Shown here one piece after another: positions 1 to 7,863 of a stretch of 7,863 bases of DNA. A program made the position numbers and the translations under genes. The notes under the pieces were generated by a model. It made no database searches. It had not been told where the DNA came from and saw only the letters and a list, made by a program, of their open reading frames with translations. Location of the stretch: the IMG/VR virus record IMGVR_UViG_2802429226_000012, positions 1 through 7,863 of that record; one strand, written 5' to 3'. This DNA comes from a virus. Taxonomy: Duplodnaviria > Heunggongvirae > Uroviricota > Caudoviricetes. Position 1 is the stretch's first letter. Each line of letters opens with the position of its first letter.

Positions 1-648
1 ATGGCAGCGACGCACACACTCCCTCTGGCGTCACCGGGCATGGCACGCATCTGCCTTTACGGGGATTTACAACGATTTGGCCGCCGCATCGACCTTCGTG
101 TAAAAACGGGGGCTGAAGCCATCCGGGCGTTGTCCACACAGCTCCCGGCGTTTCGTCAGAAACTGAATGAGGGCTGGTATCAGGTGCGCATTGCCGGGCG
201 TGATGCAGGCGAAAATGAATTATCTGCCCGTCTTAATGAGTCGCTGGCAAATGGTGCCGTGATCCACATTGTGCCGCGTCTGGCGGGAGCTAAAAGTGGC
301 GGTGTTTTTCAGGCAGTGCTGGGTGCGGCGCTGATTGCGGTGGCATGGTGGAACCCTGTGGGCTGGCTGGGTGCCGCGGCTGTATCGGGCATGTATGCGG
401 CAGGGGCCAGTATGATCCTGGGTGGTGTGGCCCAGATGCTGGCACCGAAAGCCCGGACGCCCACAGCGACCAGCACGGATAACGGTAAGCAGAACACCTA
501 TTTCTCATCACTGGATAACATGGTTGCCCAGGGCAATGTTCTGCCTGTTCTGTACGGTGAAATGCGCGTGGGGTCTCGTGTGGTTTCTCAGGAGATCAGC
601 ACGGCAGATGAAGGGGACGGTGGTCAGGTTGTGGTGATTGGCCGCTGA
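1..648 (+). CDS. I: Tail assembly protein I (lambda gpI-like); ATG at window position 1 appears to be the native start, stop TGA 646..648
   Basis: 215-aa ORF whose whole length (MAATHTLPLASPGMARICLYGDLQRFGRRIDLRV ... NGKQNTYFSSLDNMVAQGNVLPVLYGEMRVGSRVVSQEISTADEGDGGQVVVIGR) matches my recollection of lambda gpI; GC-rich, lies directly upstream of J as in lambda. Identity is from memory, not a search. Confidence 0.88.
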   Translation: MAATHTLPLASPGMARICLYGDLQRFGRRIDLRVKTGAEAIRALSTQLPAFRQKLNEGWYQVRIAGRDAGENELSARLNESLANGAVIHIVPRLAGAKSGGVFQAVLGAALIAVAWWNPVGWLGAAAVSGMYAAGASMILGGVAQMLAPKARTPTATSTDNGKQNTYFSSLDNMVAQGNVLPVLYGEMRVGSRVVSQEISTADEGDGGQVVVIGR

Positions 649-666
649 TGCAAAATATTTCATGTG

Positions 667-694
667 AAACCGCCTCCGGGCGGTTTTGTCGTTT
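667..694 (+). terminator. Short GC-rich hairpin (AAACCGCC-tccg-GGCGGTTT) followed by a T-rich tract in the I-J spacer; weak attenuator or mRNA-stabilising hairpin
   Basis: Perfect 8-bp inverted repeat with 4-nt loop at 667..686 followed by tgtcgttt. It sits within an operon between the I stop (648) and the J start (709), so it is probably not a full terminator. GGAG at 697..700 serves as RBS for J. Confidence 0.3.
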
Positions 695-708
695 ATGGAG
701 CATGACGA

Positions 709-3700
709 ATGGGCAAAGGAAGCAGTAAGGGGCATACCCCGCGCGAAGCGAAGGACAACCTGAAGTCCACGCAACTGCTGAGTGTGATTGATGCCATCAG
801 CGAAGGGCCGATTGAAGGTCCGGTGGATGGATTAAAAAGCGTGCTGCTGAACAGTACGCCGGTGCTGGACAGTGAGGGGAATACCAATATCTCCGGCGTC
901 ACGGTGGTGTTCCGGGCAGGCGAGCAGGAGCAGTCACCGCCGGAGGGATTTGAATCCTCCGGTTCCGAGACGGTGCTGGGTACGGAAGTGAAATATGACA
1001 CGCCGATCACCCGCACCATTACGTCGGCAAACATCGACCGTCTGCGCTTTACCTTCGGTGTACAGGCACTGGTGGAAACCACCTCAAAGGGTGACAGGAA
1101 TCCGTCGGAAGTCCGTCTGCTGGTTCAGATACAGCGTAACGGTGGCTGGGTGACGGAAAAAGACATCACCATTAAGGGCAAAACCACCTCGCAGTATCTG
1201 GCCTCGGTGGTGGTGGGTAACCTGCCGCCGCGCCCGTTTAATATCCGGATGCGCAGGATGACGCCGGACAGCACCACAGACCAGCTGCAGAACAAAACGC
1301 TCTGGTCGTCATACACCGAAATCATCGATGTGAAACAGTGCTACCCGAACACGGCACTGGTCGGCGTGCAGGTGGACTCGGAACAGTTCGGCAGCCAGCA
1401 GGTGAGCCGTAATTATCATCTTCGCGGGCGCATTCTGCAGGTGCCGTCGAACTATAACCCGCAGACGCGGCAATACAGCGGTATCTGGGACGGAACGTTT
1501 AAGCCAGCATACAGCAACAACATGGCCTGGTGTCTGTGGGATATGCTGACCCATCCGCGCTACGGCATGGGGAAGCGTCTCGGTGCGGCGGATGTGGACA
1601 AATGGGCGCTGTATGTCATCGGCCAGAATTGCGACCAGTCGGTGCCGGACGGCTTTGGCGGCACGGAGCCGCGCATCACCTGTAATGCGTACCTGACCAC
1701 ACAGCGCAAGGCGTGGGATGTGCTCAGTGATTTCTGCTCGGCGATGCGCTGTATGCCAGTATGGAACGGGCAGACGCTGACGTTCGTGCAGGACCGACCG
1801 TCGGATAAGGTGTGGACCTATAACCGCAGTAATGTGGTGATGCCGGATGATGGCGCACCGTTCCGCTACAGCTTCAGCGCCCTGAAAGACCGCCATAATG
1901 CCGTTGAGGTGAACTGGATTGACCCGAACAACGGCTGGGAGACGGCGACAGAGCTTGTGGAGGATACGCAGGCCATTGCCCGTTACGGTCGTAACGTCAC
2001 GAAGATGGATGCTTTTGGCTGTACCAGCCGGGGGCAGGCACACCGCGCCGGGCTGTGGCTGATTAAAACAGAACTGCTGGAAACGCAGACCGTGGACTTC
2101 AGCGTGGGGGCGGAAGGGCTTCGCCATGTACCGGGCGATGTCATTGAAATCTGCGATGATGACTATGCGGGTATCCGCATCGGCGGGCGCGTGCTTGCGG
2201 TAAACAGCCAGACCCGGACGCTGACGCTCGACCGTGAAATCACGCTGCCATCCTCCGGTACCACGCTGATAAGCCTGGTTGACGGAAGTGGCAATCCGGT
2301 CAGCGTGGAGGTTCAGTCCGTCACCGACGGCGTGAAGGTAAAAGTGAGCCGTGTTCCTGACGGTGTTGCTGAATACAGCGTATGGGGGCTGAAGCTGCCG
2401 ACGCTGCGCCAGCGTCTGTTCCGCTGTGTGAGTATCCGTGAGAACGATGACGGTACGTATGCCATCACTGCCGTGCAGCATGTACCGGAGAAAGAAGCCA
2501 TCGTGGATAACGGGGCGCACTTTGACGGCGACCAGAGTGGCACGGTGAATGGTGTCACGCCGCCAGCGGTGCAGCACCTGACTGCCGAAGTCACCGCAGA
2601 CAGCGGGGAATATCAGGTACTGGCGCGATGGGACACGCCGAAGGTGGTGAAGGGGGTGAGCTTTATGCTTCGCCTGACCGTGGCAGCGGATGACGGCAGT
2701 GAGCGGCTTGTCAGCACAGCCCGGACGACGGAAACCACATACCGCTTCAGGCAACTGGCGCTGGGGAACTACAGGCTGACAGTCCGGGCAGTAAATGCCT
2801 GGGGGCAGCAGGGGGATCCGGCGTCGGTATCGTTCCGGATTGCCGCACCGGCAGCGCCTGTCACTATTGAACTGATACCGGGGTATTTTCAGATAACGGC
2901 GGTCCCGAAACTGGCTGTATATGACCCGACGGTGCAGTTTGAGTTCTGGTTCTCGGAAAAGCAGATTATTGATATCAGGCAGGTTGAAACCAGCGCGCGT
3001 TATCTTGGTACGGCGCTGTACTGGATAGCCGCCAGTAGCAATATTAAGCCGGGTTATGATTATTACTTTTATATCCGCAGCGTGAACACCGTTGGTAAAT
3101 CGGCATTTGTGGAGGCCGTCGGTCGGGCGAGCGATGATGCGGAAGGTTATCTGAATTTTTATAAAGGGTTGATCAATAAAACGCATCTCGGCAAGGAGCT
3201 ACTGGAAAACTTTGAGCTGACGGAAGATAACGCCAGCAAACTGGAGGAGTTTTCGAAAGAGTGGAAAGACGCTAACGATAAATGGAATGCCATGTGGGGC
3301 GTCAAAATTGAGCAGACCAAAGACGGCAAACATTATGTCGCGGGTATTGGTCTCAGCATGGAGGACACGGAGGAAGGCAAGCTGAGCCAGTTTCTGGTTG
3401 CCGCTAACCGTATCGCGTTTATTGACCCGGCAAACGGGAATGAAACGCCGATGTTTGTGGCGCAGGGCAACCAGATATTCATGAACGACGTGTTCCTGAA
3501 GCGCCTGACAGCCCCCACCATTACCAGCGGTGGCAGTCCTCCGGTATTTTCCCTGACATCAGACGGAAAGCTGACCGCTAAAAATGCGGATATCAGTGGT
3601 AGTGTGAATGCGAACTCAGGAACGCTCAACAATGTCACGATTAACCAGAACTGTACGATTAAGGGCATGCTGGAGGCGACCCAGGTCAGAGGGGATTTCG

Positions 3701-4122
3701 TTAAAGCTGTATCAAAAGCCTTCCCGAAAAAAGTCGGTACGTGGGGTAACACGGAAACACCAAACGGTACGGTTACAGTCACCATCAGCGATGATCATAA
3801 CTTTGACCGCCAGATTATTATTCCGCCCATTATTTTTAACGGTATAGCGTATGACGATCCGGGGAGCGGAAATAACCCAGGAGGCACGCGATACACGGGT
3901 TATGGTTTTGAAGTTCGCAAAAACGGCGTATTAATCGCATCCAGAGAAACTAAAGGGGCCATTCCCGGTAGTTACAGTGCAGTTATTGATATGCCTAGTG
4001 GTGGTGGTAGCGTCACTCTGGAGTTTAAGGTTTTCCAGAAAGGCAATCAGGGGGCAGGCAATATCACCGACTGTACGGTGATTGTGACCAAAAAAGCCGC
4101 TTCCGGTATCAGTATCCGTTGA
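709..4122 (+). CDS. J: Host specificity protein J (central tail fibre / tail tip protein) with a divergent C-terminal receptor-binding region
   Basis: 1137-aa ORF; N-terminal and central sequence ([45 protein letters not shown] ... [43 protein letters not shown]) matches my recollection of lambda J (about 1130 aa). RBS GGAG 8 nt upstream of the ATG. The last roughly 130-150 aa (from about nt 3700) are AT-richer and do not match the lambda J C-terminus as I recall it. Confidence 0.95.
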
Positions 4123-4142
4123 AATATTTATAACCCCAATAC

Positions 4143-4170
4143 GGGCGCCAGAAATGGCGCCTTTTTTATT
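4143..4170 (+). terminator. Rho-independent terminator-like hairpin immediately after J
   Basis: GGGCGCC-agaaat-GGCGCC stem-loop (4143..4161) followed by TTTTTTATTT (4162..4171), 21 nt after the J stop codon and 12 nt before the stf start. Confidence 0.55.
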
Positions 4171-4182
4171 TGTGGAGTGAGT

Positions 4183-6564
4183 ATGGCAGTACAGATTTCA
4201 GGTGTGCTGAAAGATGGTGCGGGAAAACCAATACAGAACTGCACTATTCAACTGAAGGCAAAGCGTAACAGCACCACGGTACTGGTGAACACGGTGGCCT
4301 CTGAAAATCCGGATGAAGCCGGGCGTTACAGCATTGATGTTGAGTATGGCCAGTACAGCGTTATCCTGCTGGTTGAAGGTTTTCCGCCTTCACATGCCGG
4401 GACCATTACCGTCTATGAAGGCTCCAGACCAGGTACGCTGAATGATTTTCTCGGTGCCATGACGGAAGATGATGTCATGCCGGAGGCATTGCGTCGTTTT
4501 GAGGAAATGGTGGAAGAAGCGGCACGCAACGCTGAAGCCGCCTCTCAGAGCGCAGCGGCGGCAAAGAAATCCGAAACTGCAGCGGCATCATCGAAGAATG
4601 CGGCGAAAACCTCAGAAACGAATGCAGCTAACAGCGCACAGGCGGCAGCGGCCTCGCAGACTGCATCGGCAAACTCCGCGACAGCAGCCAAAAAATCAGA
4701 AACCAACGCGAAAAACAGCGAGACAGCCGCAAAGACGAGCGAAACCAACGCAAAGTCCAGCCAGACAGCAGCGAAAACCAGCGAAACGAATGCCAAAGCC
4801 AGTGAAACTGCGGCGAAAAACAGCCAGGATGCAGCAGCCGAAAGCGAGAGTGACGCAGCTGGTTCTGCAAGTGCGGCGGCTTCTTCTGCCACTGCATCAG
4901 CCAACAGTCAAAAAGCTGCAAAAACCAGCGAAACCAACGCAAAGTCCAGCCAGACGGCAGCGAAAACCAGCGAAACGAATGCCAAAGCCAGTGAAACTGC
5001 GGCGAAAAGCAGTCAGGATGCAGCAGCCGAAAGCGAGAGTGCTGCAGCTGGCTCTGCAAGCGCGGCGGCTGCTTCTGCCACTGCATCAGCCAACAGTCAA
5101 AAAGCTGCAAAAACCAGTGAAACCAACGCAAAGGCGAGCGAGACTGCGGCGGCTAACTCGGCGAAAGCATCCGCTGCAAGCCAGACGGCTGCAAAAGCAA
5201 GTGAAGACGCAGCCAGAGAGTATGCAAGCCAGGCTGCGGAGCCGTATAAACAAGTATTGCAGCCGCTTCCCGATGTGTGGATACCGTTTAACGATTCACT
5301 GGATATGATTACGGGCTTTTCGCCGTCATATAAAAAGATTGTTATTGGTGATGATGAAATAACAATGCCTGGCGACAAGATTGTAAAGTTTAAACGCGCA
5401 TCAAAAGCAACTTACATTAATAAATCTGGTGTGCTGACAGAGGCTGCAATCGATGAACCTCGCTTTGAAAAGTATGGATTGCTGATTGAAGGGCAGCGTA
5501 CAAACCTGTTAATAAACAGCACAAATCCATCAAAGTGGAACAAGTCATCAAATATGATTTTAAATACATCAGGTGTAGATGATTTTGGTTTCCAGTACGC
5601 AAAATTCACATTAAAACCAGAAATGGTGGGGCAAACCTCAGCCATTTCTATTGTCACAGTATCTGGAAGCAAAGGATATGATGTTACCGGCGATGAAAAG
5701 TATGTAACTATCTCATGCAGGGTACAAAGTGGGACTCCAAATTTAAGATGTCGATTACGATTTGAAGAATATGATGGATCTACCTACAAATTCCTGGGTG
5801 ATGCTTACTTAAATATGACAGATTTATCGATTGATAAAACTGGCGGCGCTGCAAGTCGTATTACTGCAAGGGCTGTTAAAAATGAAGCAAGCAAATGGAT
5901 TTTCTTTGAGGCAACAATTAAGGCACTTGATACAGAAAATATGATCGGTGCGATGGTGCAATATGCACCACCAAAAGGGGGAAGCACTGGTGCAGATGAT
6001 TATATTTATGTTGCAACTCCTCAGGTCGAAGGCGGTTCGTGCGCTTCTTCGTTTATTATTACTGAGGCAACGCCAGTCACAAGAGCCAGTGATATGGTGA
6101 ATATACCAACAAATAACAATATCGGTACACCACCTTTAACATTTCTAGCTGAAGTTCATACAAACTGGAACGAAACGCCAAATGCAGCACCACGAATTTT
6201 TGATACCAGTGGTGGGAGCACAACTCCGGGTCAATATATAAGTGTTGCTATTAGTTCAACATTATTTCCTAGTGTTACGATGTACAATAAAAACGGTAGT
6301 ACAGTAGCCGCCGTATCGCCAGTATTATTTGAACAAAAATCTGTTCTTGGATTTGTTTTAAATGAATCTGGTAATGTGCATTTCGTTAGCAATGCTCAGC
6401 ATGGAACTCCTAAAACTACGGATCATGTCGGTGTTAAATCTGGTTATTTCTTCAGGATTGGTGGGCAGACTAATAGCGGCCTACGTCATCTTTTCGGTCA
6501 CATTCGTAATTTTCGTATATGGCATAAAGAATTAACCGATGCGCAAATGGGAGAGATAATATAA
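4183..6564 (+). CDS. stf: Side tail fibre protein (lambda Stf-like N-terminus; repeat-rich shaft; distinct C-terminal LamG/concanavalin-A-like receptor-binding domain)
   Basis: ORF track gives 4177..6564 from a GTG; I prefer the ATG at 4183 because the product then begins MAVQISGVLKDGAGKPIQNCTIQLKAKRNSTTVLVNTVASENPDEAGRYSIDVEYGQYSVIL, matching the lambda Stf N-terminus from memory, and GGAG at 4173..4176 is correctly spaced. Middle region has KTSETNAK-type Ala/Ser/Thr repeats. C-terminal end FGHIRNFRIWHKELTDAQMGEI resembles the C-terminal consensus of LamG-like (Laminin_G_3) domains (F-G-x-I-D-E-V-R-I-Y-N-R-A-L-S-x-x-E-I). Stop TAA 6562..6564. Confidence 0.85.
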   Translation: MAVQISGVLKDGAGKPIQNCTIQLKAKRNSTTVLVNTVASENPDEAGRYSIDVEYGQYSVILLVEGFPPSHAGTITVYEGSRPGTLNDFLGAMTEDDVMPEALRRFEEMVEEAARNAEAASQSAAAAKKSETAAASSKNAAKTSETNAANSAQAAAASQTASANSATAAKKSETNAKNSETAAKTSETNAKSSQTAAKTSETNAKASETAAKNSQDAAAESESDAAGSASAAASSATASANSQKAAKTSETNAKSSQTAAKTSETNAKASETAAKSSQDAAAESESAAAGSASAAAASATASANSQKAAKTSETNAKASETAAANSAKASAASQTAAKASEDAAREYASQAAEPYKQVLQPLPDVWIPFNDSLDMITGFSPSYKKIVIGDDEITMPGDKIVKFKRASKATYINKSGVLTEAAIDEPRFEKYGLLIEGQRTNLLINSTNPSKWNKSSNMILNTSGVDDFGFQYAKFTLKPEMVGQTSAISIVTVSGSKGYDVTGDEKYVTISCRVQSGTPNLRCRLRFEEYDGSTYKFLGDAYLNMTDLSIDKTGGAASRITARAVKNEASKWIFFEATIKALDTENMIGAMVQYAPPKGGSTGADDYIYVATPQVEGGSCASSFIITEATPVTRASDMVNIPTNNNIGTPPLTFLAEVHTNWNETPNAAPRIFDTSGGSTTPGQYISVAISSTLFPSVTMYNKNGSTVAAVSPVLFEQKSVLGFVLNESGNVHFVSNAQHGTPKTTDHVGVKSGYFFRIGGQTNSGLRHLFGHIRNFRIWHKELTDAQMGEII
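4726..5150 (+). repeat. In-frame tandem direct repeat, 189-bp unit (63 aa), about 2.2 copies, inside the stf shaft region; built from shorter roughly 42-bp (14-aa) sub-repeats
   Basis: gaaaccaacgcaaagtccagccagac occurs at 4741..4766 and 4930..4955; aaaaccagcgaaaccaacgcaaag at 4921..4944 and, with one mismatch, at 5110..5133 (offsets of 189). Copies are near-identical over most of the unit. Encoded repeat is AKTSETNAKSSQTAAKTSETNAKASETAAK[N/S]SQDAAAESES[D/A]AAGSASAAA[S/A]SATASANSQKA. Confidence 0.85.
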
Positions 6565-6845
6565 TGCGAGATTTAATTATCAAATTCACAGACAAGGCCG
6601 ACTTTTCGGCCTTTATGGATAGCATTGGTTATGACGATGACGAGGTGATGCAGAACAATGTTCTCATTGACGTGATAGGTAACGTGTATAAAGAAACCGG
6701 AGAACTGACTGAAGATGGCGAACCGGTATGTGTTAAGGAAGACGGATATTTTGTAAATGTGCGCATCATTAATGATGTGAAAACACCGTCAATGTTCGAT
6801 GAATACGCGGTTGTTGTTGAGCATCAACTTCGTGGCTGGATGTGA
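6564..6845 (+). CDS. Small strongly acidic protein of unknown function, translationally coupled to stf; occupies the position of a tail-fibre assembly gene but is not recognisably Tfa-like
   Basis: 93-aa ORF; ATG at 6564 overlaps the stf stop (TAATG). GGAGAG 8 nt upstream. About 21 Asp/Glu against about 8 Lys/Arg by my count. AT-rich codon usage like the stf C-terminal domain. No similarity to lambda Tfa that I can recognise. Confidence 0.6.
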   Translation: MRDLIIKFTDKADFSAFMDSIGYDDDEVMQNNVLIDVIGNVYKETGELTEDGEPVCVKEDGYFVNVRIINDVKTPSMFDEYAVVVEHQLRGWM

Positions 6846-6854
6846 GGCAGAAAA

Positions 6855-7559
6855 ATGGCTACATCGACAGTAATTCCAGGAGATATCACCACGCTAAAGG
6901 GAGAAGTCACTAAAACTAAGGAAGATATTTCCTCAATTAACGGAAAAGTATCAACGCTTCAGACTGATATGACCAGTGCAAAGCAGGATATCAGCTCCAG
7001 ATACACAAAAACTGAAGTTGATAATAAGCTGAAAAACAAAGTGGAAGCGAACGATCTGGAAAGCGGTCGTTATGGCGGTGATTTTTACCCGCTGACAGGT
7101 CGAGAAGCGTTTTATTTATGGAATTTGGCCACGACTACAGCGGCGGCAAACCTTTATCTTAATCCTGACCCCGCAATTTCGTCTGTACTGCGGTCAACAT
7201 CGTCTATTCGCTATAAACATTCAGTAGAGACGATAGATTCAGAGCACGCCGATCTCATTTTCAAGATGCGCCCTGTGTGGTACAGGTCGCAATGCGAAAA
7301 TGACAGGCGCGATTGGGGATTCTATGGATTGATTGCCGAGGAAGTAGGAGAAATTGCCCCTCAGTTTGTTCACTGGCGACCAGCTAACGAAGATGATGCA
7401 CCGGAAACCATTTCCAGCAATGGCCTTGTTGCCGAAGGTGTAATGTACGAACGTCTGGTTGTTCCACTGATTCACCATATCCAGAAACTGACTGAAAGAG
7501 TTGATGAACTTGAGTCAGAATTAAAGTTGTTATTAACTTCCCGAAGCGATATTGGATAA
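6855..7559 (+). CDS. Short tail-fibre-like protein with C-terminal peptidase S74 intramolecular chaperone (endosialidase-chaperone type) autoproteolytic domain
   Basis: 234-aa ORF. N-terminal half has fibre-shaft-like motifs (ITTLKGEVTKTKEDISSINGKVSTLQTDMTSAKQDISSRYTKTEVDNKLKNKVEANDL). C-terminal half (SSIRYKHSVETIDSEHADLIFKMRPVWYRSQ ... DWGFYGLIAEEVGEIAPQFV ... GLVAEGVMYERLVVPLIHHIQKLTERVDELESELKLL) fits the Peptidase_S74 consensus (S-D-x-x-L-K-E-N-I ... R-P-V-x-Y ... G-F-I-A-Q-E-V ... Y-x-x-L-V-P-L-L-I-x-A-I-K-E-L). Ser116 and Lys121 are spaced as in the catalytic Ser-Lys dyad. Confidence 0.8.
   Translation: MATSTVIPGDITTLKGEVTKTKEDISSINGKVSTLQTDMTSAKQDISSRYTKTEVDNKLKNKVEANDLESGRYGGDFYPLTGREAFYLWNLATTTAAANLYLNPDPAISSVLRSTSSIRYKHSVETIDSEHADLIFKMRPVWYRSQCENDRRDWGFYGLIAEEVGEIAPQFVHWRPANEDDAPETISSNGLVAEGVMYERLVVPLIHHIQKLTERVDELESELKLLLTSRSDIG
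7200..7556 (+). other. Peptidase S74 / intramolecular chaperone domain within the 6855..7559 CDS; predicted autocleavage at Ser116 (codon 7200..7202) with Lys121 (codon 7215..7217)
   Basis: Motif alignment to the S74 family consensus as described for the parent CDS; the S-x-x-x-x-K spacing matches the Ser/Lys dyad arrangement described for endosialidase C-terminal chaperone domains. Confidence 0.7.
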
Positions 7560-7569
7560 AGGAGGAGTC

Positions 7570-7863
7570 ATGGATATAACACCTTTCCTTCACGCGCTTT
7601 GTGCTGTGGCTGCGCAGGTACTGGTTGGTCTTTTTACCGGAAACTGGGCTTACGGGGCGATAGCCGGTTGTACATTCTTCATTGCGCGGGAACACACCCA
7701 GGCAGAATATCGCTGGATTGAAATGTTCGGGCATGGCAAGCGGATTAACATGCCGTGGTGGGGCGGTTTTGATCCACGTGCATGGGATGTGGCAAGCCTG
7801 ATGGATTTTGCTGTGCCGGTGGTGGCGTGTCTGCTGGTCTGGCTGTTGGTTAATCGCGGGTGA
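7570..7863 (+). CDS. Small predicted inner-membrane protein (2-3 hydrophobic segments), function unknown; possible moron or accessory gene
   Basis: ORF track starts at a TTG (7552) that overlaps the upstream stop; I prefer the ATG at 7570, preceded by a strong SD (AAAGGAGGAG, 7558..7567). 97-aa product with hydrophobic stretches FLHALCAVAAQVLVGLFTGNWAYGAIAGCTFFIA and FAVPVVACLLVWLLV. GC-rich, unlike the two upstream genes. Stop TGA at 7861..7863, the last codon of the window. Confidence 0.55.
   Translation: MDITPFLHALCAVAAQVLVGLFTGNWAYGAIAGCTFFIAREHTQAEYRWIEMFGHGKRINMPWWGGFDPRAWDVASLMDFAVPVVACLLVWLLVNRG

Follow-up and report, generated by a model that had tools for sequence, protein, structure and literature searches.

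What is the role of a small membrane protein gene that closes the tail-fiber region of a phage and stands directly behind its receptor-binding genes? The question is raised by a stretch of 7,863 nucleotides from a Caudoviricetes virus (IMG/VR record IMGVR_UViG_2802429226_000012, positions 1 to 7,863; hereafter the window), which covers the late part at the right-hand end of a lambdoid tail region and begins with the C-terminus of gpI (1-648) and gpJ (709-4122). These are followed on the + strand by a 795-aa side tail fiber (4177-6564; phage_tail_N, PHROG 1419) whose C-terminal half opens a low-GC cassette, by a 93-aa PHROG 1361 protein with no assigned function (6564-6845), and by a 234-aa fiber-type protein with a C-terminal Peptidase_S74 intramolecular-chaperone domain (6855-7559). 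The last of these is the immediate upstream partner of the gene under study (7570-7863, + strand), while in phage 21 it is the homologue of the 93-aa protein that lies directly 5' of the corresponding gene.

Within the side tail fiber gene, a 189-bp unit with nested 42- and 21-bp periods is repeated 2.3 times at 4680-5151 (92% matches), encoding Ala/Ser/Thr/Glu/Lys-rich repeats (…AAKTSETNAKSSQT…) with an AT skew that rises as high as 0.5-0.7. The low-GC cassette at 6564-7559 consists of two genes, for the 93-aa PHROG 1361 protein and a 234-aa coiled-coil protein, and phage 21 has only the 92-aa homologue of this pair. The 234-aa S74 protein aligns with no more than the C-terminal ~240 of the 1385 positions in the PHROG 3299 profile and looks like a separate short fiber or tip subunit. 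A 625-aa open frame antisense to gpJ (1309-3186, - strand) probably amounts to a shadow ORF of J, a GC-rich gene.

The final gene of the window is a genuine gene under purifying selection. It runs from an ATG at 7570 to a TGA ending at 7863 (97 codons plus stop), its product matches a family profile over the full length, and its dN/dS is 0.10-0.20 in pairwise comparisons with six homologues. The Shine-Dalgarno sequence AGGAGG (7560-7565, + strand) lies 4 nt 5' of the ATG and 1 nt 3' of the TAA of the upstream gene (7557-7559), the distance from the upstream stop to the gene being 10 nt. A mechanical ORF list also offers a TTG start at 7552 (103 aa); we take the ATG at 7570 as the true start because homologues begin at the MD(I/L)(T/S)P position. 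The first-pass annotation, made from the sequence by itself, had described a strong Shine-Dalgarno, a 97-aa product and a return to GC-rich composition exactly here, all of which was borne out: GC content is 54.4% in this gene, compared with 44.3% in the 234-aa gene, 41.8% in the 93-aa gene and 39.4% in the C-terminal half of the side tail fiber (Stf) gene. The gene thus sits at the level of the backbone (gpI, 59%; gpJ, 55.5%), and the compositional outlier is therefore the receptor-binding cassette. Its TGA is also the last codon of the window, and its downstream side is visible in related loci only.

The claim that this is a small integral membrane protein gene directly 3' of the tail-fiber cassette likewise stood. 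Hydropathy places three hydrophobic stretches at residues about 5-23, 27-39 and 74-95, and AlphaFold2, supplied with a 37-sequence alignment, predicted helices at residues 4-23, 26-53 and 74-96 (mean pLDDT 97, pTM 0.82). Helix 1 (residues 4-23; 7579-7638) is hydrophobic, carries a nearly invariant His8, and is predicted to form a hairpin, through a G24-N25 turn, with the hydrophobic part of helix 2 (residues 26-39; 7645-7686). A conserved polar segment follows (residues 40-76; 7687-7797); it carries most of the Lys and Arg of the protein and holds the block REHTQAEYRWI..FG.GKR.NMPWWGGFDPRxW, which spans the polar remainder of helix 2 together with the loop that leads into helix 3. Helix 3 (residues 74-96; 7789-7857), the most hydrophobic segment, contains a conserved D79 and an invariant P83. 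All of these elements are encoded on the + strand.

Conservation is unusually high for a small phage membrane protein, with the E. coli, Aeromonas and Comamonas copies 57-60% identical to one another. In an alignment of 37 members reaching down to 32% identity, R40, E41, Q44, A45, W72 and P83 never vary, H8, E46 and R48 reach at least 90% conservation, and a closer set of homologues adds D68 and D79 to the invariant positions. In their respective helices, H8, R40/E41 and D79 are all 4-5 residues away from the same end, and because of these positions relative to the helix boundaries they should share one membrane depth in the predicted fold.

On which side of the membrane does the conserved segment lie? 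Averaged over 299 family members, K+R counts are 0.42 in the N-terminal tail, 0.08 in the turn between helices 1 and 2, 5.64 in the conserved segment and 0.58 in the C-terminal tail, summing to 6.1 for the side of the N-tail and loop and 0.7 for the other side. Since the hairpin predicted by AlphaFold brings the N-terminus and the conserved segment to one side, and the positive-inside rule puts the K/R-rich side in the cytoplasm, the predicted topology is N-in and C-out, and the conserved segment probably faces the cytoplasm. At odds with this, the phage 21 record cites a TMHMM prediction of two TMDs with N-in and C-in, and some family members have basic C-terminal tails, which also run counter to the N-in/C-out arrangement. 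Two longer homologues (P0165 and P0231; 140 and 146 aa) carry ~45 extra hydrophilic residues within the conserved loop, inserted between FGK and RANMPWW, which include a WHYxxYGxxEGR motif. This motif may recur in polysaccharide-biosynthesis enzymes; a PDB search with the insert returned weak transketolase similarity only.

The protein belongs to a catalogued yet uncharacterised family. It matches PHROG 1443 from end to end (E = 5.9e-59; its residues 1-96 align with positions 1-96 of the 97-position profile), a family with no assigned function whose members are labeled 'hypothetical protein' by their sources, except for the UniProt name 'Ybl63' given to some E. coli entries; two clusters with such entries among their members (P0016 and P0036) are 81% and 80% identical to the window protein. 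Relatives of PHROG 1443 amount to 341 clusters at 50% identity by phmmer and 2117 clusters at 90% identity by profile search, are nearly all 90-125 aa long, and are distributed across Proteobacteria. Homologues are found in 1900 of the 5426 complete E. coli genomes (35%), with a median of two copies, and among 50,697 phage records in 53 by DNA similarity and 75 by protein similarity (tblastn). The window protein has no match in Pfam, NCBIfam or PADLOC (0 PADLOC families at E <= 0.1), a sequence-profile search of the PDB yielded chance matches only (E about 1), and no specific likeness emerged among solved or predicted viral structures. The searches thus turned up no known structural or lysis protein as a homologue, which, together with the predicted transmembrane helices, leaves the earlier reading of a small membrane protein intact. 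We found no relevant literature on Ybl63 or PHROG 1443, nor any description of the pattern documented below, namely a constant membrane gene linked to receptor-binding proteins across morphotypes and lifestyles that also occurs in capsule loci.

In the phage records inspected, the homologue lies on the same strand as, and directly 3' of, a receptor-binding gene (annotated or judged as such) or the small partner of one, with a single exception, Aeromonas phage 62AhydR11PP, where all neighbors are unannotated hypothetical proteins. Among lambdoid phages, phage 21 has the order Stf, 92-aa protein, homologue and then a convergent sitABCD, and PhiR49_1 has the same cassette as the window. The P22-like phages JEP4 and Gally carry it between tailspike and integrase, with a 4-nt overlap in JEP4, and in the P22-like vB_EcoP-611R6 the order is tailspike, OafA-type acetylase, fiber fragment, homologue, integrase. 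In the Halomonas myovirus phiHAP-1 it overlaps a tail-fiber assembly gene and precedes the sheath gene, and in HC6 an unannotated copy follows an 859-aa protein. Virulent phages carry the homologue as well, placed between tail-fiber genes: in the jumbo Aeromonas phage ACP1 it stands between a 1125-aa protein and a tail fiber, and in the 154-kb Cobetia phage Carin-5 the order is tailspike, homologue, fiber, tailspike.

A survey of 48 upstream neighbors, drawn from diverse IMG/VR loci and phage records, gave the same result, 22 of the 25 commonest upstream PHROG families being tail fiber, tailspike, tail, baseplate or virion-structural families and the other three being without description. Prophage copies in Comamonas, Acidovorax, Pantoea, Leclercia and Trichlorobacter are preceded by large proteins (1000-2500 aa) or by spike-like ones, the large upstream protein having been confirmed as gpJ-type in one Comamonas locus (L004). 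In Pigmentiphaga and Comamonas nitrativorans the homologue is flanked on one side by a 370-aa fiber-type protein and on the other by Avd of a diversity-generating retroelement (DGR). Those two loci (L115 and L117) and two metagenomic phages (IMG/VR L191 and L198) share a 366-383-aa protein 5' of the homologue, with PHROG 2889 (fiber-type) assigned for L117 only; bAvd is directly 3' of the homologue in L115, L117 (4824-8054) and L191; the following gene in L198 looks like a reverse transcriptase. In these retroelement loci the homologue would be directly 3' of the probable DGR target gene. In 611R6, the OafA/YrhL-type O-acetylase and a 37-aa tail-fiber fragment lie between tailspike and homologue (locus L170, 2405-4288), which suggests that the homologue entered the seroconversion slot along with the 3' end of a fiber gene.

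The neighbors vary and the gene does not. In 80 E. coli viral loci the protein is at least 96% identical, and upstream of it stand three unrelated groups of genes: in 36 loci the 227-234-aa S74 type, in 23 loci a 309-347-aa type and in 19 loci the 92-aa PHROG 1361 protein. DNA similarity between the window and phage 21 begins at the Shine-Dalgarno, which is therefore also a mosaic junction, and the sequences upstream of it are unrelated. An 80%-identical copy of the window protein follows a P22-type tailspike. A consensus scan, which weak or non-sigma-70 signals could escape, detected no promoter-like + strand site within about 1 kb 5' of the gene and no terminator-like site in the window; the same kind of scan detected no terminator-like site between gene and downstream neighbor in a locus with a 100%-identical copy (L005), where that neighbor is a convergent YbcY-like gene. 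Because such signals of its own were not seen, the gene is most simply read as co-expressed late with the fiber genes. Its constancy, the junction at the Shine-Dalgarno and the missing signals together mark it as the fixed right flank of an exchangeable receptor-binding cassette, and it appears to behave as the last cistron of the late operon, no autonomous moron.

Many IMG/VR prophage calls (L005-L084, e.g., L011, L013 and L017) have their end, like the window, at the stop codon, three bases past the aligned coding sequence, a consistency that shows the gene to be the last late-strand gene before convergent cargo. The cargo on the opposite strand varies. In phage 21 it is the sitABCD iron/manganese transporter operon (L001, 5399-8848), and in L005 (6488-7153) and PhiR49_1 it is the YbcY-like protein; behind it come, in PhiR49_1, an annotated Tfa fragment and OmpT and, in L005, a short unannotated ORF at that place.

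The first-pass annotation had taken the gene for a likely moron, with receptor masking among the suggested functions, and neither idea fits well. There are no flanking promoter- or terminator-like sites, GC content is that of the backbone, the gene overlaps its upstream neighbor in other phages, and both virulent phages and bacterial capsule loci carry it; one trait of morons is present, namely patchy occurrence among related phages (75 of the 50,697 phage records, 1900 of the 5426 E. coli genomes). Masking of a specific receptor is unlikely for a protein that stays more than 95% identical beside unrelated receptor-binding genes.

Homologues in bacterial chromosomes provide a second context. 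Kps/Kds genes lie within 6 kb of the homologue in 21 of 80 genome loci, all of them alphaproteobacterial and in three gene orders, the taxa being related and the 21 loci not phylogenetically independent events. The order in Aureimonas is KpsD-like, OMP, homologue, KdsA, KpsU, KpsF. In Qipengyuania, Aurantiacibacter and Porphyrobacter it is GT2 (opposite strand), KpsD-like, homologue, PhyH (opposite strand), KdsA (opposite strand), KpsF, KpsU. The third order has a sulfatase-family gene (opposite strand), a KpsS/C-like gene, the homologue and a GDP-mannose-dehydratase-like gene (Erythrobacter, Porphyrobacter), with other genes 3' of the homologue in a variant found in Croceibacterium, Novosphingobium and others; in Croceibacterium (L119) the homologue overlaps the KpsS/C-like gene by 4 nt. 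Three gene orders in two bacterial orders point to a putative functional tie with Kdo-lipid-anchored capsule assembly. Placement in a Kps/Kds cluster was seen neither in the window nor in any phage locus, and we know of no such gene in the E. coli kps clusters.

Elsewhere the chromosomal setting differs. Aeromonas species (L003, L091, L092, L094 and L097) hold the homologue at one fixed chromosomal site, between pirin and a RIO1-type kinase and with no phage genes nearby, where it looks like a domesticated or ancestral bacterial gene. In L003, the sole locus with Pfam calls reaching that far, two lipid A acyltransferase genes lie 3' of the kinase; the kinase itself was considered as a Kdo or LPS kinase and set aside, as it matched RIO1 only. 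A chromosomal copy in Leclercia sits between housekeeping genes.

What, then, might the protein do? We tentatively propose, as a possibility that we would not put near an even chance, that it is a late-expressed inner-membrane factor acting on lipid-linked surface-glycan assembly. The conserved segment, His8 and Asp79 would form a ligand-binding or catalytic site on one side of the inner membrane, likelier the cytoplasmic one, and this putative site would act on an assembly step common to many hosts; chromosomal relatives inside Kdo/Kps-type capsule clusters would act likewise. In the phage, display of the glycans recognized by fibers or spikes would be altered or stopped, and fewer progeny and nascent receptor-binding proteins would be trapped and superinfection reduced, whatever the specificity of the receptor-binding protein, a benefit of late glycan-synthesis shutdown that is speculative. 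In favor of the glycan link, P22-like phages carry the gene in the tailspike-to-integrase slot, shared in 611R6 with an OafA-type O-acetylase. Against it, the capsule-locus association is limited to related alphaproteobacteria, and the Aeromonas and Leclercia neighbors are unrelated housekeeping genes. A broader version of this proposal is doubtful: PHROG 1443 would be a near-universal accessory of receptor-binding modules, a mini inner-membrane enzyme or ligand-binder derived from Kdo/Kps-type capsule assembly that temperate and virulent phages of three tail morphologies captured to reprogram the lipid-linked glycans of the host at the time when fibers or spikes are made.

The protein could instead serve superinfection exclusion at the inner membrane, in the style of T4 Imm, P22 SieA or HK97 gp15, where it would block DNA entry or another generic step regardless of receptor. 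It is a small inner-membrane protein, its gene adjoins receptor-binding genes as cor and llp do, its indifference to the type of receptor-binding protein suits a post-adsorption block, and prophages carry it in abundance (median two copies; 35% of complete E. coli genomes); virulent phages carry exclusion genes too. Yet the lack of a detected promoter of its own and the translational coupling to late receptor-binding genes make it less likely that a lysogen expresses it. Exclusion proteins are usually lineage-specific, and the very strong conservation across distant hosts runs against such a role, as does the absence of a PADLOC match; the chromosomal copies in capsule operons would be left unexplained. 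We consider exclusion rather unlikely.

Size and position also recall lysis genes, and the protein could be an auxiliary holin, an antiholin or a lysis-timing regulator at the end of the late operon. At about 100 aa and with three helices it resembles class I holins, holin genes follow receptor-binding genes in T4 (t after 38) and T7 (17.5 after 17), and an endolysin cassette is the next module in about 6 of 37 diverse viral loci. However, each of the loci with an endolysin has another small TM protein beside it, and most have spanin (Rz/Rz1-like) candidates as well; the holin idea is weakened because separate holin candidates flank every downstream endolysin, and spanin candidates most of them. 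Neither the window nor the E. coli phage loci that were inspected have an endolysin adjoining the gene, and the lambdoid and P22-like carriers presumably have canonical lysis cassettes elsewhere. A nearly invariant polar segment of 37 residues is atypical of holins, and homologues stand in chromosomal capsule and housekeeping contexts. The window protein is probably not the holin, and a lysis role of any kind seems improbable.

Very improbable, in our view, is a membrane-anchored assembly or maturation factor for fibers and spikes, such as a platform holding nascent receptor-binding proteins at the membrane: strict adjacency and coupling to receptor-binding genes in siphoviruses, podoviruses and myoviruses, including virulent phages with the gene between two fiber genes, and the favored cytoplasmic orientation of the conserved segment would suit it, but the neighboring receptor-binding proteins are structurally unrelated while the protein is nearly constant, so that a shared binding surface is hard to picture, chromosomal copies occur without any phage context, and many phages of the same groups do without the gene (75 of 50,697 phage records match). 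Tai/Ati tail-assembly interference of phi80 (orf63 and orf64, with atiEcA 5' of the packaging module; PMC11364771) was set aside as well, since the available part of that source places it in a different region of the phi80 genome and gives no link to the PHROG 1443 gene. The remaining probability falls to something else.

Whichever reading holds, near-invariance over 37 residues from E. coli phages to sphingomonads, in a protein found in a third of complete E. coli genomes, means that it must do something specific. As the fixed right flank of a swappable receptor-binding cassette, the gene is tied to host range, prophage-mediated resistance and phage engineering, and an exchange of fiber cassettes would either take it along or disrupt it. 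Were it to act on surface-glycan assembly, as we tentatively propose, it would represent a phage-host interface of a new type and perhaps a component so far missing from Kps-type capsule pathways.

In position the gene resembles cor and llp, the seroconversion genes of P22-like phages and the holins adjacent to receptor-binding genes, yet the features that define each of these are absent from it. Cor (phi80, N15 and T1-like phages) and Llp (T5) are likewise encoded by small envelope protein genes beside receptor-binding genes and protect cell and progeny at the level of the receptor; both are outer-membrane lipoproteins specific for FhuA. In contrast, the window protein is a three-helix integral membrane protein without a lipobox (Cys11 is preceded by H-A-L, with Leu at -1, and a basic n-region is missing from the N-terminus MDITPFLHALC), and it shows no co-variation with the receptor-binding protein; Cor/Llp-type receptor-specific masking was set aside on both grounds. 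With T4 Imm, P22 SieA and HK97 gp15 it shares being a small phage inner-membrane protein, presumably dispensable in the laboratory, but profile searches, as opposed to direct sequence comparison, gave no annotated homology to them; these proteins are expressed early or from the prophage, whereas the window gene is coupled to late receptor-binding genes. Class I holins (lambda S105), T4 T and T7 gp17.5 are similar in size, number of hydrophobic helices and a position at the end of the tail-fiber genes, but the window protein differs in its long invariant polar segment, in the chromosomal copies outside phages and in the separate holin candidates found where an endolysin follows. The P22-like seroconversion modules (gtrABC, oac/OafA) occupy the tailspike-to-int slot that the homologue takes in JEP4, Gally and 611R6, and the window protein is, like GtrA, a small inner-membrane protein; it also has a possible link to surface glycans. 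It has no similarity to GtrA, to acyltransferases or to any Pfam family and no GtrB or GtrC partner, and, unlike these modules, its homologues occur also in virulent phages and stand in the same orientation as the tailspike gene, coupled to it.
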